Positions 10,085 to 50,004 of a DNA stretch of 64,000 bases are shown here, one piece after another (position 1 is the first letter of the stretch; each line of letters starts with the position of its first letter). The DNA is from an uncultured delta proteobacterium (GTDB taxonomy: Bacteria; Desulfobacterota; Binatia; UBA9968). The stretch lies in the NCBI GenBank assembly GCA_963847445.1, contig CAWJZV010000046.1, forward strand, positions 224,001 through 288,000, written 5' to 3'. The translations under genes and the position numbers were made by a program. The notes under the pieces are model-generated. The model was not told where the DNA came from, made no database searches, and worked only from the letters and a program-made list of their open reading frames with translations.

Positions 10085-10146
10085 AAAGAGGAGTCGGCTT
10101 CGAGTCGACGAACTAAACGACGAGGCGGTAACAAAAAATCGGAAGA

Positions 10147-10462: not shown

Positions 10463-10487
10463 TCCGCATAGCTCGGATTCGAAAATT

Positions 10488-10645: not shown

Positions 10646-10749
10646 ATACTGCGAAATTTCGCGGCTATTTCCTGCGTAAGCGCTACCTTTTCACCGGCGA
10701 TTTCTGCTATTCAGATTAGATAATCATGGAGAAGGGGCGGCCTAGCGGC

Positions 10750-11253: not shown

Positions 11254-11254
11254 C

Positions 11255-23572: not shown

Positions 23573-23651
23573 AGGGTCGAAGTATCGGATAACCGCTCGA
23601 GTTGTCAACCATGGAGTCGGCAATGATGGTGGTTCAGTTTCGCAAAAATTT

Positions 23652-33153: not shown

Positions 33154-33456
33154 GGCTGCTGTCGCGTAGTGTGATCATCGTGATCTCAGTCGTTAAAGAT
33201 TGTTCGGAGATACTCGCCGCAGGCGCCGCATACGAGCTCGACATTACTCGGGCCGGAGATTTTCCAAGAAGCGCGGCAGGCTTGCCACGAAGTTCGCAGG
33301 TTTCGTGGCCGAAAAGCGGCAGTCATCGGTCGGACCGTCGGTGTTCGCGGTTGTCGCAGTGGGCGTTAGTTAGATCGTCGATCGGGATCTCGCGTTTGTC
33401 GGCGAAGTTTTGCATCGGAGTTCTCTTTTTCGGTTCCATGGTGTTGGGTTTAGGAG

Positions 33457-33485
33457 TTAGATGCACCGGTGTGAGCATAGGTTGC
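33457..33485 (-). promoter_or_regulatory. ECF-type promoter copy 1
   Basis: Minus strand GCAAC-N17-CATCTAA. Confidence 0.75.
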
Positions 33486-33499
33486 GGGCGGTAGTTTAG

Positions 33500-33682
33500 C
33501 TAATCGGCGATTCGCGAGACCATGGCGCCGCAACCAGGGCAGTTGTGATGTTCTTCAATCAAACCGCCGAGCGAGATGTCGACCTTCGCGGCCTCGGGCA
33601 GTTCGGCAGCGTAGATCAGTTTATCGGCGTGGTGATTTATTTCATCGCCGCACTTAGGGCAGACCATCTTATTCTTTGCCAT
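33500..33682 (-). CDS. Small Cys/His zinc-ribbon-like protein
   Basis: CPKC..EINHHA...HHNCPGC; SD GGGAG. Confidence 0.7.
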   Translation of the reverse strand: MAKNKMVCPKCGDEINHHADKLIYAAELPEAAKVDISLGGLIEEHHNCPGCGAMVSRIAD

Positions 33683-33691
33683 TTCTCCCGG

Positions 33692-34264
33692 TTAGCTTTC
33701 CAGGGCGATGTGGTCGCGGCCGTAGCGTAGAGCCTTGGCCATCCAGACGAGTTCGTCTAAAAATTTGTCGGCGCGCTTGATAAACGCCTGATCGAGGAGC
33801 TTGCCCGATTCGTCGAATACGTTGGCGACGTTGCCGAAGTTGACATCCCAAAAAATATTGACCAGGCCGAGCTCGCGAATCACCGGCAGCAGATTCTGAA
33901 TCGCGCGCACGCCGCCGAAAGGCCCCGCGGATACCCCGACGATTCCGGCCGCTTTGTGGATATACTCCTTCAGGCAGCTGTCGAGCACATGTTTGAGCAG
34001 GCCGGGAAAGCTATGATTGTATTCCGGTGTGACGATCACCAGAGCGTCGGCCATGGCCATTTTTTCCGCGAAGACCGGGTCCTTGATACCATCTCCGGCA
34101 TCATCCATCGGCAATGGTATCTGCGAAATATCGATCAACTCCGTGGTAACTCCCTGCCGATTTGCGATCTGCTCCGTCATGAAGCGCGCCGCGTGGGCGC
34201 TTATGCGTCCTTTGCGGGTTGTTCCGAGAATTACCGGTATGCTCAACGGCCGGGTGTTGATCAT
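33692..34264 (-). CDS. NADPH-dependent FMN reductase
   Basis: ILGTTRKGR, IVTPEYNHSFPGLLK, SAGPFGGVRA. Confidence 0.92.
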   Translation of the reverse strand: MINTRPLSIPVILGTTRKGRISAHAARFMTEQIANRQGVTTELIDISQIPLPMDDAGDGIKDPVFAEKMAMADALVIVTPEYNHSFPGLLKHVLDSCLKEYIHKAAGIVGVSAGPFGGVRAIQNLLPVIRELGLVNIFWDVNFGNVANVFDESGKLLDQAFIKRADKFLDELVWMAKALRYGRDHIALES

Positions 34265-35933
34265 CTTACGCTCCTTCGCTGTGCTTGGGAGAGATGGTCA
34301 ACTGCCGCATCAGGCCGAATACCCGGAACATTCAACGCCATGCGATAGAGTGTGTTCTGCGCGGTGATGTAGAGCGTCTTGCCGTCGGCGCCGCCCCAGG
34401 CGAGGTTGTGCGGGTTCTTCGGCGTCTTGATCGTGCCGAGGTGTTTTCGGCGCGAGATCACCCAGATACCGCCGGGGCCGCAGACGTAAAGATTGCCTTG
34501 TGATCGACTTTGATGCCGTCGATGGCGTCTTCGCCGGGCGCCTCGTCATGTCGAAGAAGACTTTGCCGTTGGACAGCGTGCCATCGGCGTCGACTCGGTA
34601 GCGCATGACGACTTTCTTTTCCGGATCCCAGTTGCCGACGTAGAGATATTTCTCGTCCGGCGAGAAGGCGATACCGTTGGGGCCTTTCAGATCGGTGCTG
34701 ATCCAGTTTGAGCTTGCCGTCTTTCAGGCTGAAGACGCCGCTGTAGGGCAACTGTTTGCGCGGGATCGTCGTAGAATTTCGGCAGATCCAAACGGCGGAT
34801 CGGTGAAGAACAGCGCGCCGTCGGAGCGGTAGACGAGATCGTTGGGCCTGTTGAGCCGCTTGCCTTCGTACTGTCGGCGAGAACGGTCACGCGTCCGTCT
34901 TTCTCGATGCGCGCGACACGGTGGTTGCCATGCTCGTTGATCGTCAGCCTTCCTTGCGGGTCGAGGGTTAGGCCGTTGGAGCCGGGCTGAAAATATTCGC
35001 CGATGTCTTTGCCGGAGTAGCCGCTGTTGGTTTTGAAAACCGACAGCTTGCCGTCGCCGCCGTATTTGTAGATCGTATTGGCATTGGGATCGCTGAAGAG
35101 AAAATCGCCGCTCTGGGTCCAGATCGGTCCTTCGGTGAATTGAAAACCTTCGGCGAGCTTAAAAATCTTCGGGTTGAGCGGCACGATGGCATCGATGGCC
35201 GGATCGACGCGCTCGACATTGACGTTGACTTCGTGCGGCGCGACGGCGACCGGTCCAGCCGGGACTTGTGGAATTCCAACCGGCGCATAGCGCATCCAGA
35301 TATAGTTGGTCGGCGGCTGCGATATCGGGCCGTTGGCGCCGAAGATGGCGAGCTGAATGGTCTGCCCCGGCTTGACGCCGCGGCCGATGACCAGACGATT
35401 CTCTGCGTTCCAGCCTTTGATCACCGAGCCGCCGCTCTGGCCGGCGGCGCGCGGCAGTTCGCCGTCGACCCAGACTTCGGCGTAGTCGTCGAGCGAAGTC
35501 GAAAACGACCGTCGAGCCGGTCGGATTGAAGTTGCCGATGCGCTCGGGGACGGTGATCTTGATTCGATACCAATTGAAAGCGAGCTTGCCGTTGGTGCGT
35601 CGCTTATCCAGGCTGGTCGGTTCGATTACTTCCCATTTCGAATCGTCGAATTCGGCACGGCCGGCTTGCGGTGTGATGTCGTAGGTCTTGTTCGGCGTCG
35701 TCGATGGTTGTCCGTCGGCGCCGACGGCTTTGAAATCGACTTCGATAATTTTCGTGTCGCTGTAGCGCCATTGGCCTTTGACGAGTTGGACGCCGCCTTT
35801 GTTCCGAGGTCGACTTTGCGCCTTCGGCGCGCGTTTGGTGGGCTGTTTCGTTGAGGGGATGGCGTGAGACGATTGATTCGGCGCCCAAGTGCAACCACAA
35901 GGGTTGCGGGAATTATACTTGAGTTAGTTTCAT
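34261..35933 (-). CDS. Exported SMP-30/gluconolactonase with extra N-terminal beta-sandwich domain (frameshifted)
   Basis: N-terminal WRYSDTK...FNWYRIKITVP...DDYAEVWVDG...IQLAIFGANGP; C-terminal FTEGPIW, LFSDP, GSNGL, PNGIAFSPDEK, HNLAWG. Confidence 0.85.
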
Positions 35934-35939
35934 TGAACC

Positions 35940-36813
35940 TCAGTTAGCGGCGCGGACTTTGACGACGTAGTAGTTGAGCGGGCCTTTGACTTCCTTGAAC
36001 CAGTGCGGCGTGTTGTGCGGCACGATGATCACGTCGCCTTTGGTGACGTGCGTCTTTTCGCCGCCTTTGACGTTCGCTGCCGCGGATCTCTTCGGTCTCG
36101 ATGTTTTTACCGCCGACAATGGTGCCGCCGGTGACCGAGGTGGCACTTGCCGTCGAGCATGTAGATGATGTCGGTGTCTTTGGCGTGGACTTCGACCACG
36201 CCGGGCTCGTCACGGTGGCTGGCGTGGACTTTATAGTTGGCGATTTCGAGTAGCGGCATGCCCTTCTCAAACGCCTTGTTCACCTGACCCGCGGAGAAGT
36301 AGTTCGACCTTGGGCGCCGCTGCTTTCGCCATCTCAGTGTCTGCGGTGAACGCCAGCACGTCGGCCTTAGCGATGTCTTCGTCTTCCTTCGGCGTGTTGC
36401 CGCTGACGCCGATGGCGCCGATGGTTTTGCCGTCGACGTTCAGCGGCAAGCCGCCTTGCAGTGGCGTTGCGCCGGGTAGCGCCAGAGACGCGATTCGGCC
36501 ATTCTTTATCTGCTCTTCGAAGTCGCGGCTCGGCCGGCGGAAGATCGCCGCCGTGCGCGCCTTGCCGATGCCGACATCGACACTGGCGACCTGGGTGTCG
36601 TCGAGACGTTTGACGATCAGCGGGTATCCGCCCTCGTCGACCACGACGATGACTACCGTGGCATTGCGTTTCTTGGCTTCGATTTCGGCGGCGAGGGACG
36701 ATCTTTTCCGCCGCCGCGAGTGTGAGAATCTTTTTCTCCGAAAGCTGCGCCGAACTCATTGACGGCGCGATCAGCGCGAATAACACAATCAAGATAAATG
36801 CTTTGAGTTGCAT
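35940..36813 (-). CDS. Exported GlcG/HbpS heme-binding domain fused to a C-terminal cupin (frameshifted)
   Basis: Signal peptide; VVDEGG...GKARTAAIFRRP...GAIGVSG; then HASHRDEPGVVEVH...KGDVIIVPHNTPHWF. Confidence 0.8.
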
Positions 36814-36899
36814 CCTATTCTCCTTGATCCGAACCGTTGTGCGTTTGAACCCTTCGATTGACTCAGACCAGGCTCTTGAACCTTTGAACGGTTCGTTGC

Positions 36900-37372
36900 T
36901 TAGCGCAGCGCCGCCGCGCCAGCCATAGCGAGATCTTCATCTTGCTGGGCGCTGGAGGCGCCGCTGACGCCGATGGCGCCGACGATCTGGCCGTCGAACA
37001 TGATCGGCACGCCGCCTTGCAGCGGCGTGAAGTCATGCAGCGAAGTCATGGCGGTGCGTCCTTTGTTGATAATGTCCTCGAAAGCTTTGGTCGGCCGTTT
37101 GAAGATCGCCGCGGTACGCGCCTTGCCGATGGAGATGTTTGCGCCGGCGGCGAAGGTGTTATCCAAACGCTCGGCCGCCATCAAGTTGCCACCATCGTCG
37201 ACCACCGCGATGGCGGCGCCGGAGCGTTTAGTTTGTTCGCTTCGGCGACAGCAGCGCCGATGACTTTCTTGGCGCCTGCTAAATTCAGGCCTGGTTTTGC
37301 CGTGGTCTGCGCTTGTGCGTCAGAAATCATTAGGACGGAAAACAAGGTTACAGGCAGGACTAAAAACTTCAT
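36900..37372 (-). CDS. Exported GlcG/HbpS heme-binding protein (one frameshift)
   Basis: Signal peptide; AIAVVDDGG...ERLD...GKARTAA...GGVPI...GAIGVSGA..AQQD. Confidence 0.88.
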
Positions 37373-37404
37373 GGCGTCTCCTGTCGGTTATATTGGCAAA
37401 AATT

Positions 37405-37439
37405 GCTGGCCGGGCTCTGAAGGGCGAACCCGGCCAGCG
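37405..37439 (-). terminator. Intercistronic hairpin/terminator after the DM13-like gene
   Basis: GCTGGCCGGG / CCCGGCCAGC 10-bp stem followed on the minus strand by AATTTTT. Confidence 0.55.
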
Positions 37440-37456
37440 TCGCATGGAGGACGGCT

Positions 37457-37861
37457 CTACATGACGGGCTTGTCGAAGGCGGCTTCGCCGAGATTACTCT
37501 CGGCCCAAGCACACCAGATCACGACCTTGGCGACTTCCTTGATGTAGTCGGGCAGAGTGATCTTGCGATTCATCTTGTTGTCTTTAATGGCGATTCTCTG
37601 CAGCATGAAGACCGTGCCCTTGGAGTCGACCACCTGCCAGTGCGGATCGGGCGTATCGGGGTTCTTGAAATCGTCAGACAAGGACAGTACAAGCTTGCCA
37701 CCTTCTTTGCTCGACGTAACAAAGCCGGTATTCGCCTTCGCTCCCTTGAATGCGCCGCTCTTCATCATCATCTCAGCGGCGTAGAGCTGGCTGCTACACA
37801 GCAGACCTGCCCCCAAGGCTACCGCTAAGGTTTTGCCGTGTCGTTTAGTTTTATCTTTCAT
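37457..37861 (-). CDS. Exported DM13-like protein
   Basis: Signal peptide, G.F.G...TG, F...DTPDPH, VVIWC...NLGEA; SD AAGGAG. Confidence 0.7.
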   Translation of the reverse strand: MKDKTKRHGKTLAVALGAGLLCSSQLYAAEMMMKSGAFKGAKANTGFVTSSKEGGKLVLSLSDDFKNPDTPDPHWQVVDSKGTVFMLQRIAIKDNKMNRKITLPDYIKEVAKVVIWCAWAESNLGEAAFDKPVM

Positions 37862-37905
37862 CGTACTTTCTCCTTTGTGTTGTGGCTTCATGGCCGATTC
37901 GCCAG

Positions 37906-37934
37906 TTAGATGCAGCGATGGTGAAAAGAGATGC
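37906..37934 (-). promoter_or_regulatory. ECF-type promoter copy 2
   Basis: Minus strand GCATC-N17-CATCTAA. Confidence 0.7.
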
Positions 37935-38047
37935 GCGGTGCGGGGACTGGAATGCAGAATGGAAAATGGCTAACGCAAAATGGCTGTACCCTTACGATGA
38001 CCGTGGGTGCAGCCTTCTGCCTTCCGACTTGTGATTCTGGCTTCTTG

Positions 38048-39013
38048 CTACGTGAATTGCGGCAGGGCGGTCTCGGCCCAGCGCGGTCGGACGCCGGCCA
38101 TGTCGAGGGACGCCATCACGCGTTTGGGTTCGCCGAGGTCGTTCCAGCGCACGCCGGTGACTTTCAGCACCGCCAGCCGCTCGGGCTTTGAGCGCCAGCA
38201 CTTGGTGGGAAAAGTTGACTTCGTGTCAGGCGAGTTGTAGAGCAGCTCGATCGCTTTCGCTTCCGCGGCAGTGCCGAAAAGCGGCGTCAACGCGGCGAAG
38301 GAGCGATAGAGTTCGGGGATCGCGCTCTCGATGATGTCGAGCAACGCTTGCACCGAGGCGACCATGACAAAGCTGTTCCACAGGCAGCCGCGCAGTTGCA
38401 GCACTTGCGCGAGCATGCGGTTGGGTTTTTCCCAGAAACGGCGCACGCCGAAGACTTTGCGCGTGACCGCGAATGGCCTGGCTCGGTTCGATCCAGCCGT
38501 ATTCGACTTCCGGGCTTTCGGGTTCGAGGCCGAGCAGCATGATCAGATCGCGCCGCGCGGCGGCGGTATCGAGCGCGGTGCGGATCTGCGCCATGAACTT
38601 GGCGTCATCGGAGATGTAATGATCGGAAGGGAAGAACGCGACAATGGCGTTGGGATCCCGCGCCGCGATGCGCAGCAGGCTATATAGGATCGCCGGCGCG
38701 GTGCCGCGATTGCTCGGCTGCACGACCAAGTTGGCAGTCGGTTTGTCGTGCAAGATTGGCTCGGTAGAAATTTTCATGGGCGCGATTGACGACATAGAGC
38801 GTGCGCTGCCGGCGCGAGCTCCAAAGGCGGCACGGTCTTGGGTCTCTTCGAGCAGCGTGCCGCGGCCGAGCACCGAGCAGAACTGTTTGGGCCGCTCGTC
38901 GCCGGCGATATGGCGGGTAAGAGATTTAAGCCGGGTGCCGTCGCCGCCGGCCAAGATGACCGCCCATTCGTGGTCCGCGCGTTGCTCGAATGTTTTTGCT
39001 CGTGCTGTTTCAT
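38048..39013 (-). CDS. Mannose-1-phosphate guanylyltransferase-like nucleotidyltransferase (frameshifted)
   Basis: VILAGGDGTRL, RPKQF, QPSNRGTAPA, FPSDH, YGWIEP, RFWEKP, WNSFV, WNDLG. Confidence 0.88.
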
Positions 39014-39125
39014 TTCGCGTCCTCGATCTTTTTAGTTTCGCAGGCCCGTGCAATCGTCCGTCTTTTTTGTGTTTAAGTTGCTGTGCGCTACTTTCGGAAG
39101 GATGCGGCGCGGTGATAGTTGCTGC

Positions 39126-39743
39126 TCAGCTGCCGCCACTGTCACCGCCGCCGCGCCGCGCCGATTCGTCGCGCCGCGCGCGGTCGATTTCTTCGTCGAA
39201 GTCTTTTCCGATGCGTTGGGCTGCTATGCCAAGCTGGTTGTTATCGAGTATGTTGGCCAGAGCTCTTTCGGACGTCGCGACGTATTGTCACGCCGCTATC
39301 CCAAGACAACCCAAAGACCGGGTCTGCCGCGATATACTCGATGGTTTCATGGATGCTCTTGAGGCCGGCTTCGATCTCTTTTCTGCCGCGATCGCGGTCG
39401 CCGCTGCGTAGTAAAGTCAAACCAAGATAGAGATGGGCCAGGGCATCGTCGTGATGGATGCTGACGGCTTTTTCCAGGGTCGTCCGTGCAGCCTTATCAT
39501 TACCGGTTTCGTAGTAGGCTCGGCCTAGATAGGTCAGGACACGTGCCGGGACCCATGTAGGGGTGCGATACTTCGGGTCTGATCGGCGGCGCGCATCAGA
39601 TAGCCGACCGCGTCGTTGGGGCGGCCGGTTTGCAGGGCATTGCGGCCGGCGGTGTACATCGCCGGCGACTGGCACGCTGGCACGCTCGAAAAGTAGATTA
39701 GCGCGGATAAACAGCTCGGAACGAGTAACGTACGAGTCTTCAT
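39126..39743 (-). CDS. TPR-repeat exported/lipoprotein (frameshifted)
   Basis: Hydrophobic leader ending in Cys; TYLGRAYYETG...ARTTLEKA...AHLYLGLTL. Confidence 0.7.
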
Positions 39744-39777
39744 GTGAGACCCTCCTAGGTTCTTGGGCTTCACCTTC

Positions 39778-40567
39778 TTAATCCTTAAGACTGCCGGTTT
39801 GCCGCAGAAGATGCAGCGTTTGGCAGTTGTCGTGATGGAGTTTGGCGCAGGCCACATCGTGAGAGCCGCGGCTCCGTATGTAGACCTCCGCAGCCGCCAG
39901 CATGCCGATCAGCGGTGCTGTGAAGTAAACCCAGAGACCGTCCATGAGTTCGCGACAATTGCCGAAGCCAAAGTAGCGCGCCGGATTCATGCTCATGCCG
40001 GAGATCGGCGCTTCGAATGTAATGTACGCAGCTACCAAGCGCCGGCGCACAGGCCGGTAAATTTATGCAGCTTGGGGTGGTTCGAAACATGCAAGATCAC
40101 GGTCATGAGAACGAAGGTAATGGCGATTTCTGCTGCGAACGCTCCAAGACTACCCAAAGTACCGGGCACAGTGACGACGTAATTGACGGACGCGTGCGCC
40201 GCCCTGGGAGGAGTAGAAAGCCGCGATGATGGCGCCGGTGTGGCCGCCGACAAATTGCGCGGCGATGTACAGGATGGCGTCCCACTTGGCGACCTTGCCG
40301 AGCCGGAAGAAGGTTAGGGTGGTCGACGGGTTGAATGCGCGCCGGATTGTTTGCCCCAGGGTGAATAGATGATCGCGATGGCCGTGCCGCCCATCGCCAA
40401 GCCCATCATGAAGCGGCGTAAGCGTAGAGTTGACGACCGCTTGGTGCACGGGGGACGGCTGGATGCTCGAGCAGGGTGGCGAAGCTGAATGCCGAGATCA
40501 TGAATAGCCCCAGGCAGGCGGCTTCGATCAGGTATTCGGGCCAGTGGTGTTTGAGAGCCAGCGTCAT
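39778..40567 (-). CDS. Aquaporin (MIP family) with Cys/His C-terminal tail (frameshifted)
   Basis: HWPEYLIEA, SGAH.NPS, SGMSMNPAR, WVYFTAPLIGM, CAKLHHDN...RCIFC. Confidence 0.88.
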
Positions 40568-40664
40568 CTCTCATTGGATGACGGCGGCGGAGCGCAAGGG
40601 TGCAGGCGGTTCGTGGCTCGTGCTCGTCGCGGATTCACGAACACGTACGAACCACGTAACTTGA

Positions 40665-41779
40665 TCAATTGAGTTGGATGACGTTCTTGATCCCCGTGGC
40701 TTTGCCGAGCAACAGCTCGCGATGGTCGGTCATGCCAAAACGGCCGGTGATCAACGATCGCACCGCCTCGGGCCAGGCGTCGTTGAAGGTCTGCAGGTCG
40801 CGGATCGCGGTTTCGAAAATGTCGCGGCCGGCGTTGACGGTGCCGAACACCACCTGGTTCTTGAGCACGAGATTGCGCATCATCAGATCGGTGTCGATTT
40901 CCACCGGCCCTTTGCGGCCGGGCACACCGGTGAAGATAAAGATGCCGTTGGTGCCGAGCTATTGCATCATGTCGAAGGCCAGGCGCGACGCGCCGGTGGC
41001 TTCGTAAACCAGGTCGACGTTGCCGATCTCGCGCGGCGAGCTGCTCGAGCGAATGAGTCTGCGCCGAGCGGTACTGGGCGCCGATCATTTCGAGCACGCG
41101 CGGATTTGTCGTTGGGCGCCGGTTCGCGGGCGTAAACGTAGGTGTCGAAGTCGGCATTCACCAGCGCCATCGCGCCGAGCAGGCCGACCGGGCCGGCGCC
41201 GAGCACCACGGCCTTGCGACAATGAGCGCGGGCTTTGCCCGGAACCACCGGGCAGCCCCAGGGCAGCCGTTGCTGGACGTGCCAGACCTGGGCCAGCGCT
41301 TTTTCGGCGATGGTCAGCGGCTCGACCAGCACGGCGACGTCGCGCAGAGCGCGCGGAACGAGGTTCATGTAAACTTCGTCGTCGACGACGAACTGCGTCA
41401 TGAAGCCATGCTGCTCTTTGATGCCGCGCTCGGTGAAGTCGCCGGTGAAGCAAAAGTCCTGGCGGCTCGCGCGGCAGGCCATGCAATGATCGTGGGGGCA
41501 GGGCCGGCGCACCATCGGCACCACCAGATCGCCGACGTTCACCCGCGTGACCTCGGCGCCGACCTCGACGACTTCGCCGAGCGACTCGTGGCCGATCACC
41601 AGATCGGCCATGCCGGCGGGCGGCGTGCCGTACTCGAAGGCGCAGATCTCCCGGTCGGTGCCGCAGACGCCGACTTCGAGCATGCGCAGTTTGACATCGG
41701 TGGGGGAGGACAGCTTGGGTTCGGCGATGTCGATCAGCGAAACCTGTTTGATTGACGGCGTGACGGCGATGGCGCGCAT
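40665..41779 (-). CDS. Zn-dependent glucose 1-dehydrogenase, archaeal/MDR type (frameshifted)
   Basis: GVCGTDREI, GHESLG, VRRPC, ERGI...HGFM, VLVEPL, GAGPVG, VLKNQVVFGTVNA. Confidence 0.88.
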
Positions 41780-41886
41780 GTTATTCTCCTCTGTTGGCGA
41801 ATGACCGGAAAGTTTAGCGGTTATTCAGTTAACCGAAATGGTTGGGTGCAAAGCCGTCGCGATCCGACGGTTTGACCTTCGCTTCG

Positions 41887-41915
41887 TTAGATGAGTGGGG
41901 CGCGCAAAAGGTTGC
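41887..41915 (-). promoter_or_regulatory. ECF-type promoter copy 3
   Basis: Minus strand GCAAC-N17-CATCTAA, upstream of glucose dehydrogenase. Confidence 0.75.
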
Positions 41916-41942
41916 GCCTTCAGCGCCACAGCCAGGAAGTGT

Positions 41943-42209
41943 TTACAGAGAGCGGCGTAACTGCAAATACGGCTGCGGCGGTTTGTTCAGCCGCCCGCGG
42001 AGAAAGCTCCGGGTCATCTCAAGGGTTTTTTTGTAGGTTGCCAAAAACGCGCCGCAGTCTCGGCAAGCGCCGAGGTGTGCTTCGAAGGCACGGCGCTCGG
42101 CTTGGCTCAGATCGTTCGTCAGATAGTCGCTGAGCAGATCGACTTCGTCGCGACAGGTAGAAATGGCGCGGTTAGCGCGGCGATTTTTCCTGGCTGGTTT
42201 GGCAATCAT
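41943..42209 (-). CDS. Soluble zf-HC2 (ZAS) anti-sigma factor no. 2
   Basis: TCRDEVDLLSDYL...FEAHLGACRDC (C-x23-H-x3-C-x2-C). Confidence 0.88.
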   Translation of the reverse strand: MIAKPARKNRRANRAISTCRDEVDLLSDYLTNDLSQAERRAFEAHLGACRDCGAFLATYKKTLEMTRSFLRGRLNKPPQPYLQLRRSL

Positions 42210-42305
42210 GGTTGCATCCTGCGCGGCGAGCGCGCTTCTGTTCCTGGCGAGCCAGGAATGCGTCGCTTCGGATTGGGAAATACTCTGGTGCAGCAAAGGC
42301 CATCA

Positions 42306-42567
42306 CTAGGCCCAAGCCGCGCTGCGACGGCCGAGATTACCGCGCCGCAAGGAGCGAGTCGGTTTGCCGCTGGTTAGACGAACCGGTGCCAACGCGCGCC
42401 CGAATCGAACCCGGTGTGAGAGAAAAAAATATGCGCCAGGCTTTCCATCACCGGGCATCGTCATTGGTCTGGCTGGTGAGTGCCTGCAGGATCTCCAGCA
42501 AACTGGTCTTGATAGTCAGCTTTTTCGATTCGCTGAGTGCATTACCGTTGGCTCGCTCAGTTCTCAT
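42306..42567 (-). CDS. Small hypothetical protein (frameshifted; absent from the ORF track)
   Basis: MRTERANGNALSESKKLTIKTSLLEILQALTSQTNDDA/VMESLAHIF.../RVRFGRALAPVRL...AAWA*; directly behind promoter copy 4. Confidence 0.55.
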
Positions 42568-42589
42568 GTCTGTTGCCCTTTCTATAAGC

Positions 42590-42691
42590 TCAAGACTTAG
42601 ATGCGCCCGGAGCAATAAATGTTACAGCAACGTCATCGTCGGAGTCAGTTATTACGCAGGGGAAAACGGCTTCCCAGCTGTTCATCGTCAT
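42590..42691 (-). CDS. Putative 33-aa small protein
   Basis: GAGGAG SD then MTMNSWEAVFPCVITDSDDDVAVTFIAPGASKS*; lies behind promoter copy 5. Confidence 0.35.
   Translation of the reverse strand: MTMNSWEAVFPCVITDSDDDVAVTFIAPGASKS
42597..42625 (-). promoter_or_regulatory. ECF-type promoter copy 4
   Basis: Minus strand GTAAC-N17-CATCTAA. Confidence 0.72.
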
Positions 42692-42755
42692 TTCTCCTCG
42701 TCTGCATCTTCTACGTCTGAGCTCGACCAATGGATTGGCCGAGAACTTTTGTCGA

Positions 42756-42784
42756 TTAGACGTGTGCGGCGAACTTTTGGTTGC
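42756..42784 (-). promoter_or_regulatory. ECF-type promoter copy 5
   Basis: Minus strand GCAAC-N17-CGTCTAA. Confidence 0.72.
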
Positions 42785-42876
42785 AGGCCATTGGCGGGGC
42801 TTCGCTAAGAGGCGGGCCTGCCGAGTGAAGTAGGATGGGCTGGTTCAGAGGTGACAAGGGGCAGGCGAGGCAGATG

Positions 42877-43188
42877 TTACGCCGCCAGCTGAGTCAAGAG
42901 GCAAAAAACTATCGCGGTGACTCGGCGCAGTTTGCTGCGCAGAAAGCCAAGCACGTTGTCGCGCACCTTGGGCGGAATCTCATCGGCGCCTAATGTCGCG
43001 GTGGTTTGGACCGTCTTCTTGTAGGTTTTCACAAAATTGACGCAGTCCGGACAGCTGCTCAGATGTTGAGTAAACGCTTGTTTCACCGTTGGGCGCAGTT
43101 TGTCGGTTAAGTAATCCAGCAGCAGATCGGCGATCTGTTTACAGGTTTTTGCGGCTAACGGGCGGCGCGTCGTTTTGACTTTGGGCAT
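42877..43188 (-). CDS. zf-HC2 (ZAS) anti-sigma factor no. 1, cognate to the adjacent ECF
   Basis: TCKQIADLLLDYL...FTQHLSSCPDC; immediately downstream of the ECF gene. Confidence 0.9.
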   Translation of the reverse strand: MPKVKTTRRPLAAKTCKQIADLLLDYLTDKLRPTVKQAFTQHLSSCPDCVNFVKTYKKTVQTTATLGADEIPPKVRDNVLGFLRSKLRRVTAIVFCLLTQLAA

Positions 43189-43202
43189 CGATGACTCTTT
43201 CC

Positions 43203-43919
43203 TTACGCTGCGGAGATAGCCGAGTTGGACCGCCAGCTTGCCGCGCAGGAACAGGCGCGCGCGATGCAGCCGAGTTTTGACCGCCGAGACCGTCAAGCCG
43301 GTGGCGGCGGCGATTTCCTTATCGGCCAAGCCTTCGAGATCGCTCAGGACGATGACGTTTTATCGACCGGTTTCAATTGTTCGAGGGCTCTCGCGATCAG
43401 CGCTTGAGTTTCACTCTTGGCGTAGTGTTCGTCGAGGGTATCCGACCAGTCGACCACCGGCCGCGCTGATGGTGGCCGTCGGCTTGAAACTTGGGCAGGA
43501 ATTCCTCGTAGGCGATTTCCTTATTTTTCTTGCTGCGGCGAATGCGACCCAAGCGCGGCGTTGACAGTCAGCCGATAGAGCCAGGTGGAGAATTGCGAAT
43601 GGCCCTGGAACAATGGGCTTTGCGGAAGGCGGTGAGAAAAACATCCTGGATCACTTCTTCGGCGTCGCGGGGCATCGCCTTCAGAATGCGCAACGCGACG
43701 TTGTAGAGTTTGCCGGAATAAAGGTTGAAAGCCTGCTCCAGGGCGGCGTGGTCGCCGGCCTTGAAGCCGGGTCACGAGATTGACTTCGTCCTGGGCCCGA
43801 CCGCGGGGTTTGGGCGCCAGCGAGGGGTTAGCGTTGCGCCGGGCGATCTCGCGAGCCAGCGGCGGTGTCAAACTGCGGCCGCGCGATCGTTCAACCGATT
43901 CGTTGTCCAAAATAATCAT
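43203..43919 (-). CDS. ECF RNA polymerase sigma factor (frameshifted)
   Basis: GDHAALEQ..., AEEVIQDVF, FQGHSQFSTWLYRLTVNAAL (region 2), LSDLEGLADKEIA..TGLTVSAVKTRLHRARLFLR (region 4). Confidence 0.92.
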
Positions 43920-43978
43920 GATCCCCTCCCCATCGAATGACATCATTGTGAAGTTAATAGTTTTTGCGCGTTGCCCGA

Positions 43979-44260
43979 CTAAGCGCCTGTTTCGCTGTCG
44001 GAGCTTCCTAGGAGCATTTCAATAAATGGCGAGCAGTTGACGATGTGGAAAGACCCGCCGCGCAGCTTGGTTAATCTGCGTGCGACTTCGTCGCTCATGT
44101 ACACCACGCCGGTCATATCGAGAATTAAATTTACCGAATCAGCCCGGTCGTGAAGCGACCAGATTTTTTCCAGTTCGGCGTAAGATTGTGAGTCAATATT
44201 GCCATCCAGCCGTATTCGTTTGGTGGTTTCGTTGACGTTTTGTTCGGTGATTCTCAGCAT
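43979..44260 (-). CDS. STAS-like domain protein
   Basis: MLRIT...IRLDGNID...ILDMTGVVYM...IVNCSPFI. Confidence 0.78.
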   Translation of the reverse strand: MLRITEQNVNETTKRIRLDGNIDSQSYAELEKIWSLHDRADSVNLILDMTGVVYMSDEVARRLTKLRGGSFHIVNCSPFIEMLLGSSDSETGA

Positions 44261-44296
44261 GTTTTTCTTCGCCTGACTTGCTTGCCCAAGCTATTT

Positions 44297-44312
44297 AGCA
44301 GATGTCATGCCA
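44297..44312 (-). promoter_or_regulatory. Sigma54 (-24/-12) promoter of the STAS-ECF-anti-sigma operon
   Basis: Minus strand TGGCATGACATCTGCT (GG-N10-GC), 36 bp before the STAS start. Confidence 0.72.
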
Positions 44313-44370
44313 CATCGTAAGCTTTGAAATAAATTAAAGTTTCGCAAAAATAGCCGATGGGGTGCTGTGG

Positions 44371-44406
44371 CATTTCGTTGTGGTATTTCGCGATGGTTGC
44401 GAAATG
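44371..44406. promoter_or_regulatory. Putative bEBP enhancer (FhlA-like UAS)
   Basis: ATTTCGC-N7-GCGAAAT dyad (44385-44405) plus CATTTCG half-site at 44371; AT-rich tract at 44320-44350 between it and the -24/-12 site. Confidence 0.55.
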
Positions 44407-44485
44407 CCGCAAGCAGCTGGTAGAGTTTTCATGCTCCTAACGATCGCGACTGCACGGCATTCGGCAGTCAACAAAGGCATGGTGT

Positions 44486-47198
44486 ATGTCTGATCCGCAA
44501 AACCTTGGTGTTCGAATGACGCCCGCAGATCCTTCAGTAAGCGTCTGCTTCGGTGCCCAGGTGAGCGATATTTCTCCGTCCAGCCATGTCGCTTACTTTT
44601 GGAACGATGAAAAGGAGTTTGCCGATGGCGTGAAGTTTCTCGAGTCCGGACTATCGGCCAGCGATCACTGTGTGATTTTTGGCCACGATGAAGCCAATCA
44701 AATGGTTTGCGACGTGCTTAAGGGACGCGGCTATGACGTCGATGGTTTGCTGGCATCCGGGCGCATCACTATCCTCGGCGGCGGCCACGGAAGCGTCGGA
44801 GATTCTCGCCAAGATCGGCGCGGTGTTTGAAAAATCATTGGCCGCCGGCGCGTCGCTGATTCGACTTTTAGGCAACATCGGTTGGGGCAGAGCCAACTGG
44901 CCGGACGAAAAATCGTTGCTGGCGTTCGAAGCGCAGGTGACCGAAGCGGCGAAACAGTTTCCTTGCGTCGTGGTCTGCATGTACGACGTCGCCGGTTTGC
45001 CAGGATCGATCGTCCACCATGGCGGGATCGGCACTCATCCGCATATCGTCAGCAACGGCCACGCGCAAGCCAACCCGCATTATGTGCCGACCGAGATCTT
45101 CTTGCGCCGCATGGAAACCGTTGCCGGCGCGGTGGCCGAGCGCCGGCGCAACGAAGCAACGCTGCACCATATCACCGAAGGCACGGTGCAGATCGTCGGC
45201 GACGATTTTTTTCGCCAACTGGCGCGCCATCTCGCCGAGGCGCTGCGTGTCCGCTACTGCTTCGTCACCGAATGCACCGACGATTCGCAGACCCGGCTGC
45301 GCGCGCTGGCGTTTTGGGACGGCCATGGGTTTGCGCAAAACGTCGAATATCCGCTGCGCGGCACGCCCTGTGAAAAAGTCATCGAAGGCAATATTTGCTC
45401 CTACCCCGATCGGCTGCAATCAGCTGTTTCCCGAGGACAAGGATCTGGTCACCCTCGGCGCTGAAAGCTACGCCGGCGTGCCGCTGGCCGAACTCGACAG
45501 GGCCGGGTGCTCGGCCATCTGGTGGTGATGGACAACCGCGCGCGCGAGTTTGGCCCGGCGAAAATGAGCTGCGCATATTGCGTATCTTCGCCACCCGCGC
45601 CGGCATCGAACTCGAACGGAGCGCGCCGACGCAGGTACCTCTAACGCCGAATTGACGCGCGCAATAAACAGATCGCGGCGAAACGCGTGGCAATCTGCTC
45701 GAAGTCAACAATGCGATCGTCACCAAACTGACCCGGGATGAGCTTTTCGCGGTGATCTGCTGACTCACTGGCAGCAAGGCGATCTGTTTCGACCGGCTGG
45801 CGCTTTCGCTTTACGATCCGGAGCTCAAAGCCTTGCGGATCGTCACCTACGCCGGCGCCTATCAGCGGGCGGATTACACGCCGATCGGCCGCGTGCTGAA
45901 ACTCGACGACAGCCCGGCGGGGCAGGCGTTTTGCCAGCCAAAAACCGGTCCTGTGCAGCGATCTTGAAATCGAGCGACTGCACCGCTTCCGAGGAACGCG
46001 CTTACGGCCATGGCTTTCGCTCGATGTGTGCTGTTGCCTCTGGTGGTGCATGGCCGATCCATCGGCGCCATTACGGTCGGCAGCCTGACCCGTTCGCAGT
46101 ATTCCGCAGCCGACGCGGAGTTTCTCATGGAGGTGGCCAACCAGATCGCCATCGCCGTCGAGAATATGCAGCTGCACGAAGAGACCGCCAGCGCTGAAAG
46201 CGCGCTTCGAGGCCGAGACGGTTTATCTTGCAGGAAGAAATCAAGACCGAGCATAACTTCGAAGAGATCATCGGCCAGAGCGCGCCGGTGCGCGAGCTCT
46301 TGCGCAAGGTCGAGCAGGTGGCGCCCACCGACGCCACGGTGTTGATTTGCGGCGAGACCGGCACCGGCAAGGAATTGTTGGCGCGCGCGGTGCACGACCG
46401 CAGCAAGCGCAAGGATCGCGCCGTTGGTCAAAGTCAATTGCGGCTCGATCCCGTCGGGTCTGGTGGAAAGCGAGCTGTTCGGCCATGAAAAGGGCGCGTT
46501 TACCGGCGCCACCCAGCGGCGCATCGGCCGCTTCGAACTCGCCCATGGCGGGACGATCTTTCTCGATGAGGTGACCGAGTTGCCGCTCGATACCCAGGTC
46601 AAACTGTTGCGCGTGCTGCAAGAAGGCGAGTTCGAACGAGTCGGCAGCAGCCAGACGATCAAGGTCGACGTGCGCGTGATCGCCGCGACCAATCGCGATC
46701 TCGAAGCAGGTCGTCGGCAACGGCAGTTTTCGCGCCGATTTATTTTATCGTCTTGAATGTTTTTCCGCTGGAAGTGCCGCCGCTGCGCGAGCGCAAGGAC
46801 GATATCCCGTTGTTGGTCAACTTTTTCTTGAGCCGGTTCGGCAAGAAGCTCGGCAAAGAAGTGCGCGGCGTGACGCGGCGCTCGATGGAGAGTCTGGTTC
46901 GCTACAGCTGGCCGGGCAACATTCGCGAGCTGCAAAACGTCATCGAACGCGCGGTGGTGCTGGCCACTGGCCCGGTGGTGCAAGTGGAGAAGCGATGCGG
47001 CCTTGCGGCGAAAACGCCGGCCAGGAGGAACCGCGCCTGCGACTCTGGAGAACAACGAGCGGGCGCATATTCAACGCGCGCTAGCCGAAACCAACTGGGT
47101 GATTCATGGCAAGAAGGGCGCGGCGGAGCTGCTCGGCATCAACCCGAGCACGCTTGCGCTCGCGCATGGAGAAACTAGGGATCAAGAAGCAGGCGTAA
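44486..47198 (+). CDS. Sigma54 enhancer-binding protein, MEDS-GAF-GAF-AAA-HTH (FhlA-like); multiple frameshifts
   Basis: MEDS-like SHVAYFW...FLESGL...IRLLG...FEA...VCMYD...THPH; GAF domains; [53 protein letters not shown]. Confidence 0.92.
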
Positions 47199-47209
47199 CC
47201 TAGCTTGAG

Positions 47210-47332
47210 GTTCAAATCGTTCAAATCGTTCAAGCCGTTCAAATCGCTGATCGCTCAACGATTCGAACGGATCGTAGCGATTGAACGGCTTGAACGTTTT
47301 GAACGACTGGAGCGTTTGAACGACTTGAACGC
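47210..47332. repeat. 9-nt-period GTTCAA/TTGAAC hairpin between convergent genes
   Basis: (GTTCAAATC)x4-like arm followed by an inverted (TTGAAC)x5-like arm. Confidence 0.78.
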
Positions 47333-47919
47333 GCGAAGCATTTTATAACCGGCGCCAGCTTGAAGGCCAAGCGAAAACCCAAAAGCAGCGCGAGTACCGC
47401 GCCATATTGCACCGGGCGGCGGATGTCGGCTTTGACCAGCCAGTAAAAGTGCAGCACGCCGAGAATTGCGATGCCATAAACCAGATAGTGCAGTTGTTGC
47501 CAGCGCTTGCCGAGGCGGCGGATCATGGCGGCGCTCGATGTAACCGCCAGCGGGATCATTAGCACCAGAGCGCTGAAGCCGACGGTGATGTAGGGCCGCT
47601 TGAAAATGTCTTTGGCGATGGCGGCGAAATCGAAGAACAGATCGAGCACCATGTAGGTGGAGAAATGCAGCGCGGCGTAGAAAAACGCGAACAGGCCGAG
47701 CATGCGGCGCAATTTGATCAGTTCGTTCCAGCCGGTGAGCCGGCGCAGCGGCGTGACGGCTAGACTGGCAAGCAAAATAATCAACGACCAGGAACCGGTG
47801 AAGCGGGTGATGTACTCGATCGGGTTGGCGGTCAAATTATCGCTGTAATAGCCGTAGCCGAGTTGGCCGAGCGGAATGAGGCAGACGATGAAGAGCGCGG
47901 GCTTTAGATAGGCAAGCAT
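47239..47919 (-). CDS. msrQ: MsrQ heme-binding membrane subunit
   Basis: ANPIE, TG.W, LAVTPLR, RRMLGLFAFFYA.LH, KRPYITVG, W..LHYLVY, LHFYW.VK. Confidence 0.95.
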   Translation of the reverse strand: MLAYLKPALFIVCLIPLGQLGYGYYSDNLTANPIEYITRFTGSWSLIILLASLAVTPLRRLTGWNELIKLRRMLGLFAFFYAALHFSTYMVLDLFFDFAAIAKDIFKRPYITVGFSALVLMIPLAVTSSAAMIRRLGKRWQQLHYLVYGIAILGVLHFYWLVKADIRRPVQYGAVLALLLGFRLAFKLAPVIKCFARSSRSNAPVVQNVQAVQSLRSVRIVERSAI

Positions 47920-48016
47920 AGGAATTAATAAATTGAGAATGGAAAATTCAAAAAAATAGGATCAGACGACTGGGTTGATCTGTCTGGCATTTTCAATTTT
48001 CACATTTTCCATTATT

Positions 48017-48979
48017 TCAGTAATTTTTCTTAAGATCCATTCCTTTATACAAGCTCGCTACTTGATCGCCGTAACCGTTGAACATCAAGGTCTTGCGCCG
48101 GCGGAATTCGCCGATGCGCCGTTCGGTCGCCTGGGTCCAGCGCGGATGGTCGACTTCGGGATTCACGTTGGAATAAAAGCCATACTCTTGCGGCTGCATC
48201 ATGTTCCACGATGCTGCCGGCTGCTTTTCGACGAAGCGAACTTTGACGATGGACTTGATGCTCTTGAAGCCGTACTTCCACGGCACGACGAGACGGATCG
48301 GCGCGCCGTTCTGTGCCGGCAAGACCTCGCCGTAGAGACCCACCGAGAGAATCGTCAGCGGATGCATCGCTTCATCCATGCGCAACCCTTCGACATAGGG
48401 CCATTCCATGGTCGGCAGCCTTTGGCCAGGAAGCCGCTTGGGATCGTTGAGGGTGACGAATTGGATGAACTTGGCGTTGCTGGTGGGCTCGGCGAGTTTG
48501 ATCAGGGCGCTCAATGGAAAGCCGACCCATGGAATCACCATCGACCACGCTTCAACACAGCGCAGCCGATAAATCCGCTCTTCCAACGGCGCCAGCTTGA
48601 TCAGCTCCTCGATGTCGTAGGTCTTGGCCTTTTTGACTTCGCCTTCCACCGCGACCGACCAAGGACGGGTAATCAGATACTTGGCATTCTCCGCCGGATC
48701 TTCTTTGTCGGGGCCGAGTTCGTAGAAATTATTATAGCTGGTGATCTCCTTCAGCGTGTTGAGCTTTTCGTTGGTGCTGAAATTACTTTTCTTGACGTTG
48801 GCGAGTTTCTCGGCGCCATAGGCGATGCCCGATTCTGTGCCCAGCTCCAAGCCGCCGAGTATCGCGCCGGTGCCGAGCGCCATGGCCGATGCCGAAAGCA
48901 TGAATTGGCGGCGGTTAAGGTAGTGCTCCTTGGGCGTGATCTCCGCTGCTTTGATATCGGCGGGCTTTTTGATCAGCAT
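48017..48979 (-). CDS. msrP: MsrP periplasmic methionine-sulfoxide reductase (Mo, Tat-exported)
   Basis: [12 protein letters not shown] Tat motif, [50 protein letters not shown]. Confidence 0.97.
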
Positions 48980-49008
48980 TGATTCTCCTCTGCGAACCTC
49001 GCGCGCCG

Positions 49009-49530
49009 CTATTCGGCGAGCAGTTGTTTGATCGTCGACTCGGTTTTGCCGTAGGCGCCTTCGCCTATATGGCTGTAGCGGATTGAGCCCTTTTTGTCGA
49101 CCAGCACGATGGTCGGCCAAGCCCAGACGCCGTAGCGTTTCCAAATATCGAAGTTGTTGTCTTGCACCACCGGGAACTTGATGCCGAGTTTCGCCGTCGC
49201 ATCTTTCACTTTGTCGATTGGTTTCTCCCAAGGAAACTCCGGCGAGTGGACGCCGACGATGGTTAATCCGGCTTGCTCGTACTTATCATGCCAACTCCGC
49301 AACTGCGGGATGATGTTTTTGCAATTGATTCAGCCATAGGTCCAGAATTCCACAAGGACGACTCGGCCTTTAAGGCTCGCGATGGTCAGCGGTTTGCTGT
49401 TGATCCAATTATCGCCGGCGATATCCGGCGCCGTCGTGCCGCTGGTGAGCGCCGCGCCGGCGCGCGGCCATGCCAGCCAAATCGCTAGCGCGAGAACCAA
49501 AGCGACTGAATAAGCTGTCAAACGCACCAT
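49009..49530 (-). CDS. Exported thioredoxin-like redoxin (DipZ Trx-domain-like) with in-frame UGA, predicted selenoprotein (U-x-x-C)
   Basis: ORFs 49330-49530 and 49009-49302 are in one frame: VLVEFWTYG[TGA]INCKN...GVHSPEF...VVQDN...WAWPT..LVDK.G.IRY.HIGEG.Y; the TGA sits at the first Cys of CxxC. Confidence 0.88.
49285..49314 (-). promoter_or_regulatory. Candidate bacterial SECIS hairpin
   Basis: ATCAT-C-CCGC-AGTT-GCGG-AGTTGGC-ATGAT starting 15 nt after UGA; apical loop 25 nt from UGA with G as second loop base. Confidence 0.6.
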
Positions 49531-49578
49531 GTACTTTTACCATTTCTCCTCGACCCTAGCGGCATGTCAGCGCATCAA

Positions 49579-49607
49579 TTAGATGCCATCCGCACCGGAG
49601 TGGTTGC
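49579..49607 (-). promoter_or_regulatory. ECF-type promoter copy 6 (redoxin-msrP-msrQ operon)
   Basis: Minus strand GCAAC-N17-CATCTAA. Confidence 0.78.
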
Positions 49608-49683
49608 GAGGTTGGGCAAATTTTCTATTAAACGTCGGTTTGCCGGGCAAAGTTCCCCAGCGGTGACTGACAAAGTGAATTTC

Positions 49684-49720
49684 AAAAAACCCAGCCGGGG
49701 GCTCGTGAGAGCCCCGGCGC
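49684..49720 (-). terminator. Intrinsic terminator
   Basis: GCCGGGGCTC-TCAC-GAGCCCCCGGC then TGGGTTTTTT on the minus strand. Confidence 0.7.
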
Positions 49721-49733
49721 GGTGGGTGGGCGG

Positions 49734-49946
49734 TTAGTGGAGGAGTTGGGAGAGGGGCGCAAAATTTTCTAATTCTTTATCTAAGTCAACCGGTTGGGCA
49801 GTTTTCTTGATCATTTCCATCACCGCGAATCGAGCCAGGTTGTAAGCGTCTTTATCGTTGTCGGAGTATTCGAAAGCGACTTCGCTGGCGGCGGCGATCA
49901 AATCTCCCAAGGTGGTGTCGATCCTGCGGCTATTGGGTTTTTCCAT
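49734..49946 (-). CDS. Small hypothetical protein
   Basis: 70-aa ORF with GAAAGGA SD, its own ECF-type promoter and terminator; IDTTLGDLIAA motif. Confidence 0.7.
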   Translation of the reverse strand: MEKPNSRRIDTTLGDLIAAASEVAFEYSDNDKDAYNLARFAVMEMIKKTAQPVDLDKELENFAPLSQLLH

Positions 49947-49976
49947 GGTCTCGCGGGTCCTTTCTCCCTTGCTTGG

Positions 49977-50004
49977 TTAGACGATTGCGGAGAAAAAAGG
50001 ATGT
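49977..50004 (-). promoter_or_regulatory. ECF-type promoter copy 7
   Basis: Minus strand ACATC-N16-CGTCTAA; the spacer contains a T6 run, so a 1-nt homopolymer error is plausible. Confidence 0.55.

Follow-up and report, generated by a model that had tools for sequence, protein, structure and literature searches.

We analyzed a 64-kb window (G000:C46:224001-288000) from the genome of an uncultured soil bacterium, a delta proteobacterium of the Binatia, G000, whose assembly comprises 7.19 Mb in 48 contigs. Seven copies of one bipartite motif on the minus strand of a 16.5-kb island in this window are probably promoters for the sigma factor of extracytoplasmic function (ECF) type encoded at 43203-43919 in the same island, and would form with it the core of a three-tier regulon directed at thiol and oxidative damage. 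Because Candidatus Binatia has no cultured member, its regulation is readable from genomes only; here, a whole regulon was reconstructed from sequence, comprising a promoter motif, a sigma factor, two anti-sigma factors, a sigma-54 switch and a set of targets (Table 1).

The motif was searched for as TTAGAYG-N16/17-GWTRY on the plus strand, which corresponds to promoters on the minus strand, with sequence shuffles as the control. Exactly seven matches were present in the window, all in a single orientation, where 0.13 were expected, and none of 100 shuffles contained seven or more. The seven single-strand copies that had been listed in an earlier, sequence-only reading of the window were thus all recovered. 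On the minus strand, the -35 element G(C/T)A(A/T)C(C/T/A) of the motif is separated from its -10 element C(A/G)TCTAA by a spacer that mostly opens with a T-run. A purine-rich stretch and an ATG follow each of the seven sites at a distance of approximately 30-110 nt, confirming that the copies lie just upstream of gene starts. The combination of this -35 element and T-run, a fixed spacing and this -10 element agrees with the ECF-promoter form that had been proposed for the motif. Comparable published elements are the predicted motifs of ECF21 (GCAACC/CGTCT) and ECF116 (TGAAAC/CGTCTAAT) (PMC7826278 supplement) and the -10 consensus CGTCTAAH of Neisseria sigmaE (PMC2893595).

To score sites across the genome, we used a two-block weight matrix built from 88 distinct sites in the loci of relatives, with zero G000 sites in the training set; its core letters were forced by the regular expression that chose the training sites. 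Across these 88 sites, the -35 element had A or T at its position 4, and the -10 element had A (77%) or G (23%) at its position 2. At a score of 20 or higher, the matrix found 13 sites in G000 versus 4 in the reversed-sequence control, and at 18 or higher, 17 versus 5. All seven island sites were within the 13 best of the 7.19-Mb genome, with scores of 20.4-30.9. In the 86 kb around the island, ten sites scored at least 18.9 and all of them were on the minus strand. Scans of the island for intrinsic terminators and sigma-70 promoters gave matches at the level of shuffled sequence only.

We then examined the sites in relatives. Close orthologues of the ECF gene were found in metagenome-assembled genomes (MAGs) of Candidatus Binatia or Deltaproteobacteria. 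Of 24 same-genus genomes, 15 contained DNA of the ECF/anti-sigma pair, and of 16 genomes from two other families of the order, none did, although negative calls by this DNA search are unreliable, since G007, which gave no ECF match, carries the P7-P6 pair of sites before its redoxin gene. In the loci of 12 relatives, the -10 element CRTCTAA occurred on the ECF strand and on the other strand 7/0, 8/0, 6/0, 8/0, 4/5, 3/0, 2/0, 3/0, 3/0, 2/0, 2/0 and 2/0 times, respectively. A set of 19 loci with an ECF of 53-85% identity, at least five of which are the same contigs as in the 12-locus set, gave 71 occurrences on the ECF strand and 10 on the other. In all 19, one or more full motifs were present on the ECF strand and the opposite strand had none; every locus had the motif downstream of the ECF core, on the strand of the core and within approximately 0.6-1.5 kb of it. 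The full motif was absent from three scanned loci, L050-L052, whose ECFs are 37-41% identical. When sites were assigned to genes by tblastn of the gene that follows each site, they recurred before the same orthologous genes (Table 1), the outcome to be looked for in such a scan according to the sequence-only reading. Kept positions combined with diverging spacers are the pattern expected of functional promoters, and this comparison supports that interpretation well.

The ECF gene is intact in all 12 relatives compared, with a mean column identity of 82%. Its orthologues scored 84.7-101.9 bits against TIGR02937 (cut-off 42.9) and matched the Pfam families Sigma70_r2, Sigma70_r4_2 and Sigma70_ECF. 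The best NCBIfam model was NF008888, at 142-154 bits and thus under its cut-off of 204, and the closest solved pair by sequence was SigW/RsiW (5wuq; E 2.2e-28 for the sigma factor and 0.13 for the anti-sigma factor). From the linkage between motif and gene, we infer that this local ECF, rather than another, reads the sites. The earlier claim that it reads all seven is consistent with the linkage, which holds in every related locus examined, but the assignment is one by linkage and P1 is unconserved. A distant cousin on a Caldilineaceae MAG contig (L049), whose ECF is only 43% identical, has TGTAACC-N-GCATCTAA 848 nt upstream of its ECF core and may be autoregulated via the same kind of motif.

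Both putative anti-sigma factors of the island contain the pattern C-x25-H-x3-C-x2-C, formed by C16, H42, C46 and C49 in anti-sigma 1 and by C19, H45, C49 and C52 in anti-sigma 2. The four residues are invariant across 21 orthologues of anti-sigma 1, and the two proteins cross-match in tblastn at 31-48% identity. The same spacing is reported for RsrA and Neisseria MseR (PMC2893595), and both proteins show the cysteine pattern of zinc-associated anti-sigma (ZAS) factors of the RsrA type. By analogy, they are predicted to respond to redox. Anti-sigma 2 is encoded behind P4 and, judging from its paralogy, would exert negative feedback if it binds the same sigma factor.

The first gene of the sigma operon encodes a STAS-domain protein, whose orthologue in G015 scored 25.2 bits (cut-off 22.6). 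Among 18 aligned STAS orthologues, the conserved V-x-F-M is followed by S, N, H or K, at the position presumed to match the phospho-serine of SpoIIAA. No HATPase or kinase-type anti-sigma gene was seen in the annotated loci. A complex prediction for the ECF core, anti-sigma 1 and the STAS protein, run without controls, gave a score of 0.00 and is uninformative either way.

The operon appears to be controlled from a different type of promoter. No ECF-type site scoring 6 or higher was found on the ECF strand between msrQ and the STAS gene. Instead, a sigma-54 type element, GG-N10-GC, stands directly before the STAS start in 18 of 18 rows (17 distinct loci, two rows being from one contig). With a strict sigma-54 pattern, this element was the sole match on both strands in 9 of 13 related loci; a looser pattern matched 16 of the 18 rows, and the remaining two read TGGCGC-N5-TTGCT. 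G000 has one rpoN gene (212 bits). Divergent from the operon is a gene for a sigma-54 activator with MEDS, GAF, Sigma54_activat, AAA lid and HTH_8 domains. It is broken into at least seven pieces in G000 and intact in orthologues (699 amino acids in G015; 1016 amino acids, with PAS, in G004), and a divergent GAFTGA gene was present in each of the 14 loci whose upstream DNA extends for 2.4 kb or more. This gene had been missed in the sequence-only reading and, being on the plus strand, makes the island not uniformly co-oriented. Given the lack of an ECF-type site and the conserved sigma-54 promoter, the sigma operon is not visibly autoregulated and is placed under a sigma-54 switch, so that the ECF would form a middle tier with a further level of control above it. 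Two palindromes of the form TCGCGAT/ATCGCGA occur approximately 50 nt apart upstream of the sigma-54 promoter (window 44330-44480, minus strand), and similar ATCGCGAT words precede the sigma-54 promoter in L031, L033 and L037; the palindromes may be binding sites of the activator.

Several observations weigh against the proposed explanation as a whole. The reading of the sites as ECF promoters, although well supported, is based on comparative evidence, and the compared genomes are kin, so that the counts overstate independence. P1 is almost without conservation, 4 of the 12 relatives lack P5, and 2 of 9 lack P3. In the whole genome, the loose pattern matched 16 times (7 in the 16.5-kb island and 9 elsewhere) versus 26 times when read backward, which indicates that it is clustered without genome-wide enrichment; over 41 genomes, real and reversed counts were about equal and hence uninformative as an enrichment test. 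The sigma operon has no motif copy, so that the usual argument from autoregulation is missing. Approximately ten other ECF-like sigma genes in G000 are possible readers of the sites. The Neisseria homologue, which has these cysteines too, failed to respond to peroxide, diamide or singlet oxygen (PMC2893595). Finally, the density of indels is higher in the ECF gene than in its neighbours, with no frame switch in msrP, msrQ, mutY or the transglycosylase gene.

Three alternatives were weighed. It is highly improbable that the motif serves a DNA-binding regulator as its operator or is some other conserved element without promoter function. The motif is bipartite, its spacing is fixed at 16-17 nt while the spacer varies freely, dyad symmetry is absent, its orientation is strictly that of the gene whose start codon it precedes by 30-110 nt, and it matches published ECF elements. 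It is also quite improbable, although less so, that the sites are genuine ECF-type promoters read by another ECF of G000, with the local ECF having different or fewer targets. GCAAC/CGTC-type motifs are common to several ECF groups, which together with the other sigma genes and the missing copy before the local operon speaks for this possibility. However, no other ECF-like gene is located less than 90 kb from the island, and the presence of the motif downstream of the ECF in 19 of 19 loci, together with its absence at the three divergent ones, argues for the local ECF as the reader.

The third alternative is that the circuit is dead in this genome, the ECF, the activator and several targets being true pseudogenes and the promoters relics. 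DNA alignment with G014 and G022 revealed approximately seven single-base indels within the 720 bp of the ECF gene. Frame switches in the island also affect the dehydrogenase, MIP, lactonase and HbpS-cupin genes in addition to the fragmented activator, and the small gene sB is truncated by a deletion. Frame breaks occur, however, in presumably indispensable or distant genes as well, including a class II tRNA synthetase gene (22183-23620, one switch), selB, and genes on C5, C25 and C18. Because similar breaks occur elsewhere in the assembly, assembly error is a likelier cause of the ECF indels than decay. Moreover, full-strength motifs were kept at all seven promoters, and both anti-sigma genes, msrP and msrQ are intact. 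We therefore consider a dead circuit unlikely.

If the seven sites are promoters of the local ECF, the circuit would operate in three tiers. In the first, the divergent activator, with variable sensors (MEDS/PAS and GAF), would fire the sigma-54 promoter of the STAS-ECF-anti-sigma 1 operon; the sequence features of this tier are conserved, and their function is predicted. In the second, as is known for the family, anti-sigma 1 would hold the ECF until its thiols are oxidised. In the third, the free ECF would transcribe the seleno-redoxin-msrP-msrQ unit, the HbpS/FMN-reductase/lactonase unit, the dehydrogenase-aquaporin unit and the genes of three small proteins, sA, sB and sC. Targets outside the island would include a DM13-GMC oxidoreductase unit, glutathione reductase and probably a cluster with an ArsS-type gene. 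Promoter positions of this tier are conserved, and their recognition by the local ECF is the predicted part. With the second, paralogous anti-sigma factor as a target, the circuit would have delayed negative feedback; positive autoregulation is not expected, since the sigma operon lacks an ECF-type promoter.

A bolder interpretation is that this is a two-key circuit new for ECF sigma factors, in which STAS and the lineage-specific proteins sA, sB and sC would make up a new kinase-free set of modulators of zinc-finger anti-sigma factors. The sigma-54 activator would set the synthesis of the sigma/anti-sigma pair, and the thiol-sensing anti-sigma factor would set the release of the sigma factor. 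The STAS protein would act without a conserved phospho-serine and without a kinase partner, and sC would be co-transcribed with anti-sigma 2. We regard this interpretation as improbable.

The regulon was described as self-contained, with no full copy of the motif outside 33-50 kb, and this did not hold, because conserved sites were found at C46:217163, C46:213613, C18:131347 and on C5. The first, 40 kb from the island, has the second-best score in the genome (30.8) and heads genes for a DM13 protein, a GMC oxidoreductase and a glyoxalase-fold protein. Approximately 40 kb of unrelated genes separate this unit from the island (G000:C46:217191-257457; window -6800 to 33457). The island is immediately followed by the DM13 unit in G004, an arrangement that suggests a rearrangement or insertion in the G000 lineage. 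The site at C46:213613 is kept in both of the relatives compared.

On C18, a site at 131347-131375 (minus strand; L127:3347-3375) reads GCTACC...ACATCTAA, scores 21.8 and ends 21 nt before the ATG of a glutathione-disulfide reductase gene (TIGR01424, 648 bits versus a cut-off of 606). Sites also precede a 31-32% identical flavoprotein gene in G012, G024 and G016. Three sites on C5 (9549, 10938 and 12126; 9549-12154 overall, L002:4549-7154) occupy the same places in G009:C593. They head genes for a methyltransferase, an ArsS-type radical SAM (seleno)protein and a VTT-domain/flavoprotein disulfide reductase, and the cluster continues with DUF547, GT2 and DUF2064 genes. The common theme of the regulon is redox and thiol repair. 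A further site, C25:81763-81791 (L004:3763-3791; score 20.9), is internal to an ABC ATPase gene and precedes a cysteine desulfurase gene of a suf-type cluster by 260 nt. G008 and G010 have kept this site, possibly through coding constraint; it may be an internal promoter or merely conserved coding sequence, and it was left out of the regulon.

Table 1. Predicted promoters and genes of the island, in window coordinates unless a contig is given, with the recurrence of each site in related loci.
Feature	Position	Strand	Evidence or description	Site in relatives
P7, ECF-type promoter	49977..50004	-	score 24.7; ACATCC-N15-CGTCTAA, spacing 1 nt shorter	CRTCTAA site before sA orthologue, 5/5 loci; one with -10 only
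P6, ECF-type promoter	49579..49607	-	score 23.0; heads redoxin-msrP-msrQ unit	4/5 loci; additionally L030, L035, L043, G007
P5, ECF-type promoter	42756..42784	-	score 20.9; heads short open reading frame (sB remnant)	8/12 loci
P4, ECF-type promoter	42597..42625	-	score 20.4; heads sC and anti-sigma 2	9/10 testable loci
P3, ECF-type promoter	41887..41915	-	score 28.7; heads dehydrogenase unit	7/9 loci
P2, ECF-type promoter	37906..37934	-	score 30.9, genome's best; -35 variant GCATCT	6/6 loci; unusual -35 kept in all six, spacer differs
P1, ECF-type promoter-like site	33457..33485	-	score 26.1; heads SGL lactonase	0/12 loci; one doubtful counterpart (G013, ~0.5 kb upstream) in a separate 5-locus scan
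Site before DM13-GMC unit	C46:217163..217191			6/6 loci
Sigma-54 type promoter	44297..44312	-	TGGCAT-N5-CTGCT (TGGCATGACATCTGCT, GG-N10-GC), ~37 nt before STAS ATG	
Sigma-54 enhancer-binding protein, divergent from ECF operon	44486..47190	+	MEDS-GAF-AAA+-HTH_8; Pfam, plus-strand pieces	
STAS-domain protein, 93 amino acids, first gene of sigma operon	43982..44260	-	Pfam STAS, E 2.7e-4	
ECF sigma factor	43203..43919	-	Sigma70_r2 and r4_2 pieces; ~seven single-base indels vs G014 and G022	
Anti-sigma 1, 103 amino acids	42880..43188	-	zf-HC2, C-x25-H-x3-C-x2-C	
Anti-sigma 2, 88 amino acids	41946..42209	-	paralogue, same C-x25-H-x3-C-x2-C	
sA, conserved protein, 70 amino acids	49734..49946	-	9 orthologues, 62% mean column identity; no Pfam family	
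TlpA/ResA-like periplasmic redoxin	49012..49530	-	Pfam AhpC-TSA/Redoxin; in-frame TGA 49330-49332	
msrP, periplasmic methionine sulfoxide reductase catalytic subunit	48017..49144	-	Pfam Oxidored_molyb, 104 bits	
msrQ-like haem membrane subunit, adjoins msrP	47239..47919	-	Pfam Ferric_reduct, 64.5 bits	
sB remnant, ~31-33 amino acids	42590..42686	-	in relatives 55-77 amino acids, MNxWEAxFxQSPxN...WxWPKxTWFQ	
sC, small conserved protein, frameshift-split	42309..42567	-	75-92 amino acids in relatives; no Pfam family	
P3 unit	38093..41809	-	zinc-dependent dehydrogenase (Glu_dehyd_C type), MIP channel, TPR protein, NTP_transferase	
P2 unit	33503..37861	-	DM13-like, HbpS-like, HbpS-like/cupin fusion, then unknown domain + SGL lactonase, FMN reductase, zinc ribbon	
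SMP-30/gluconolactonase-like protein, frameshifted	32122..33409	-	Pfam SGL, two pieces	

The redoxin encoded behind P6 is well supported as a bacterial selenoprotein. In seven distinct redoxin loci, TGA occupies the first position of U-x-x-C (U-I-N-C), and the same codon is TGC (Cys) in G013 (rows L026 and L032, from one contig). The G000 genome contains tRNA-Sec and selB, the latter in four pieces (G000:C14:192903-194790), and the alignment of TGA with Cys together with these two genes argues for readthrough as selenocysteine. A hairpin, CCCGCAGUUGCGG (window 49296-49309), lies 21-34 nt after the TGA and also encodes conserved residues. It is kept in all redoxin orthologues, including the Cys form of G013; a selenocysteine insertion sequence (SECIS) and coding constraint are indistinguishable here. 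RNA folding of the region after the TGA was no better than that of shuffles (z-score 0.57).

Genes of the island were named by Pfam searches of all minus-strand open frames. MsrP is a firm assignment: its orthologue in G015 reached 493.5 bits with the NCBIfam MsrP model NF003767, whose cut-off is 207. The DM13 call at 37460-37861 is weak (E 0.02), and the dehydrogenase and MIP genes of the P3 unit are frameshifted. 'Glucose dehydrogenase' and 'gluconolactonase' are names given at the level of Pfam only, with the best NCBIfam models far under their cut-offs, so that the generation of NAD(P)H from glucose stays a suggestion of the sequence-only reading. Most of the gene list given in that reading was confirmed by Pfam; the exceptions were the weak DM13 call, the Pfam-level name of the glucose dehydrogenase, the overlooked plus-strand activator and a 33-amino-acid open reading frame, which is the remnant of sB. 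The distance between P5 and P4 is 159 bp in G000 compared with 304-686 bp in seven relatives, and it is because of this shortening, a deletion, that sB has only ~31-33 amino acids in G000. The mutY and transglycosylase genes are outside the regulon.

The control of methionine-sulfoxide repair by ECF sigma factors has already been described in other bacteria (PMC2893595 and PMC8315932). A close parallel is sigmaE (NMB2144)/MseR (NMB2145) of Neisseria meningitidis, which belongs to ECF293 of the 2021 classification. As here, a small soluble ZAS anti-sigma factor is encoded directly downstream, methionine sulfoxide repair is a main target and the -10 element is of the CGTCTAA type, whereas the -35 element and stated spacing differ (PMC2893595). 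The Neisseria operon, as described there, is autoregulated, has a tiny regulon (msrAB), and is presented without a sigma-54 promoter, STAS gene or second anti-sigma gene. Most subgroups of ECF293 have three cysteines in sigma-4 according to the PMC7826278 supplement, but the consensus of 12 orthologues of the local ECF has none, and membership in ECF293 was rejected on this ground.

ECF16 (Caulobacter SigF/NrsF, Brucella BcrS/AbcS and Bradyrhizobium EcfF/OsrA) likewise drives msrQP-type repair and is induced by oxidants. Its -35 element, (T/C)GTAAC, resembles the one found here, but its -10 element is CGAA rather than C(A/G)TCTAA (PMC8315932). Membership in ECF16 was rejected, since it needs a six-helix DUF1109 membrane anti-sigma factor and the +1 gene here encodes a zf-HC2 protein of 93-106 amino acids with at most a short hydrophobic tail. 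Streptomyces SigR/RsrA (ECF12) shares the soluble C-x25-H-x3-C-x2-C anti-sigma factor and thiol-redox targets. The match to the RsrA model (TIGR03988, antisig_RsrA) was weak, at 29.7 bits versus a cut-off of 62.5, and neither sigma nor anti-sigma reached the cut-offs. The SigR promoter consensus, GGAAT-N18-GTT, is unlike the motif here, and SigR is autoregulated whereas the sigma operon here visibly is not. For SigW of Bacillus subtilis, the NCBIfam SigW models gave 102-130 bits versus cut-offs of 209-243. RsiW is a membrane protein removed by regulated proteolysis, unlike anti-sigma 1.

Other systems share single layers of the proposed circuit. Pseudomonas syringae HrpL (ECF32) is likewise an ECF expressed from a sigma-54 promoter under enhancer-binding proteins (PMC8999054 and PMC5263251). 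HrpL has no anti-sigma factor (PMC8999054) and controls type III secretion, whereas the sigma-54 tier here is combined with two anti-sigma factors and a STAS protein. Subgroups s7 and s18 of ECF19 likewise have STAS at -1 and a soluble zinc-finger anti-sigma factor at +1, although the anti-sigma factors are fused to a mycothiol maleylpyruvate isomerase N-terminal domain (PMC7826278 supplement). No description of the gene set in Binatia was found in the literature searched, which left most subscription journals outside its scope, and ECF-driven methionine-sulfoxide repair as such is known.

In the ECF review, transcriptional regulation is listed only among ECF sigma factors without an anti-sigma factor; the system presented here combines sigma-54 transcriptional control with anti-sigma control. 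Its predicted role is to protect the envelope and the thiol pool from oxidative damage, through MsrPQ with a seleno-redoxin, glutathione reductase, FMN reductase and HbpS-like proteins. The promoters and an intact orthologous sigma factor provide a testable set of parts for reporter assays, and three small conserved proteins without a family assignment, sA, sB and sC, are added to ECF biology.

For sC, searches of the protein Atlas returned only 'hypothetical protein' clusters, the commonest phylum being Candidatus Binatota. Its AlphaFold2 model comprised two helices with a mean pLDDT of 65.8, too weak for a fold search. A profile comparison of sA with sC gave a probability of 25% over 27 columns and did not support paralogy. 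Elsewhere in the window, the strict sigma-54 pattern had a second match, TGGCACTCAGCTTGCT, at 2315-2330 on the plus strand. In 9 of 18 aligned sC proteins and in the window copy, W-A are the last two residues and follow a basic tail; this ending could be a degradation tag.

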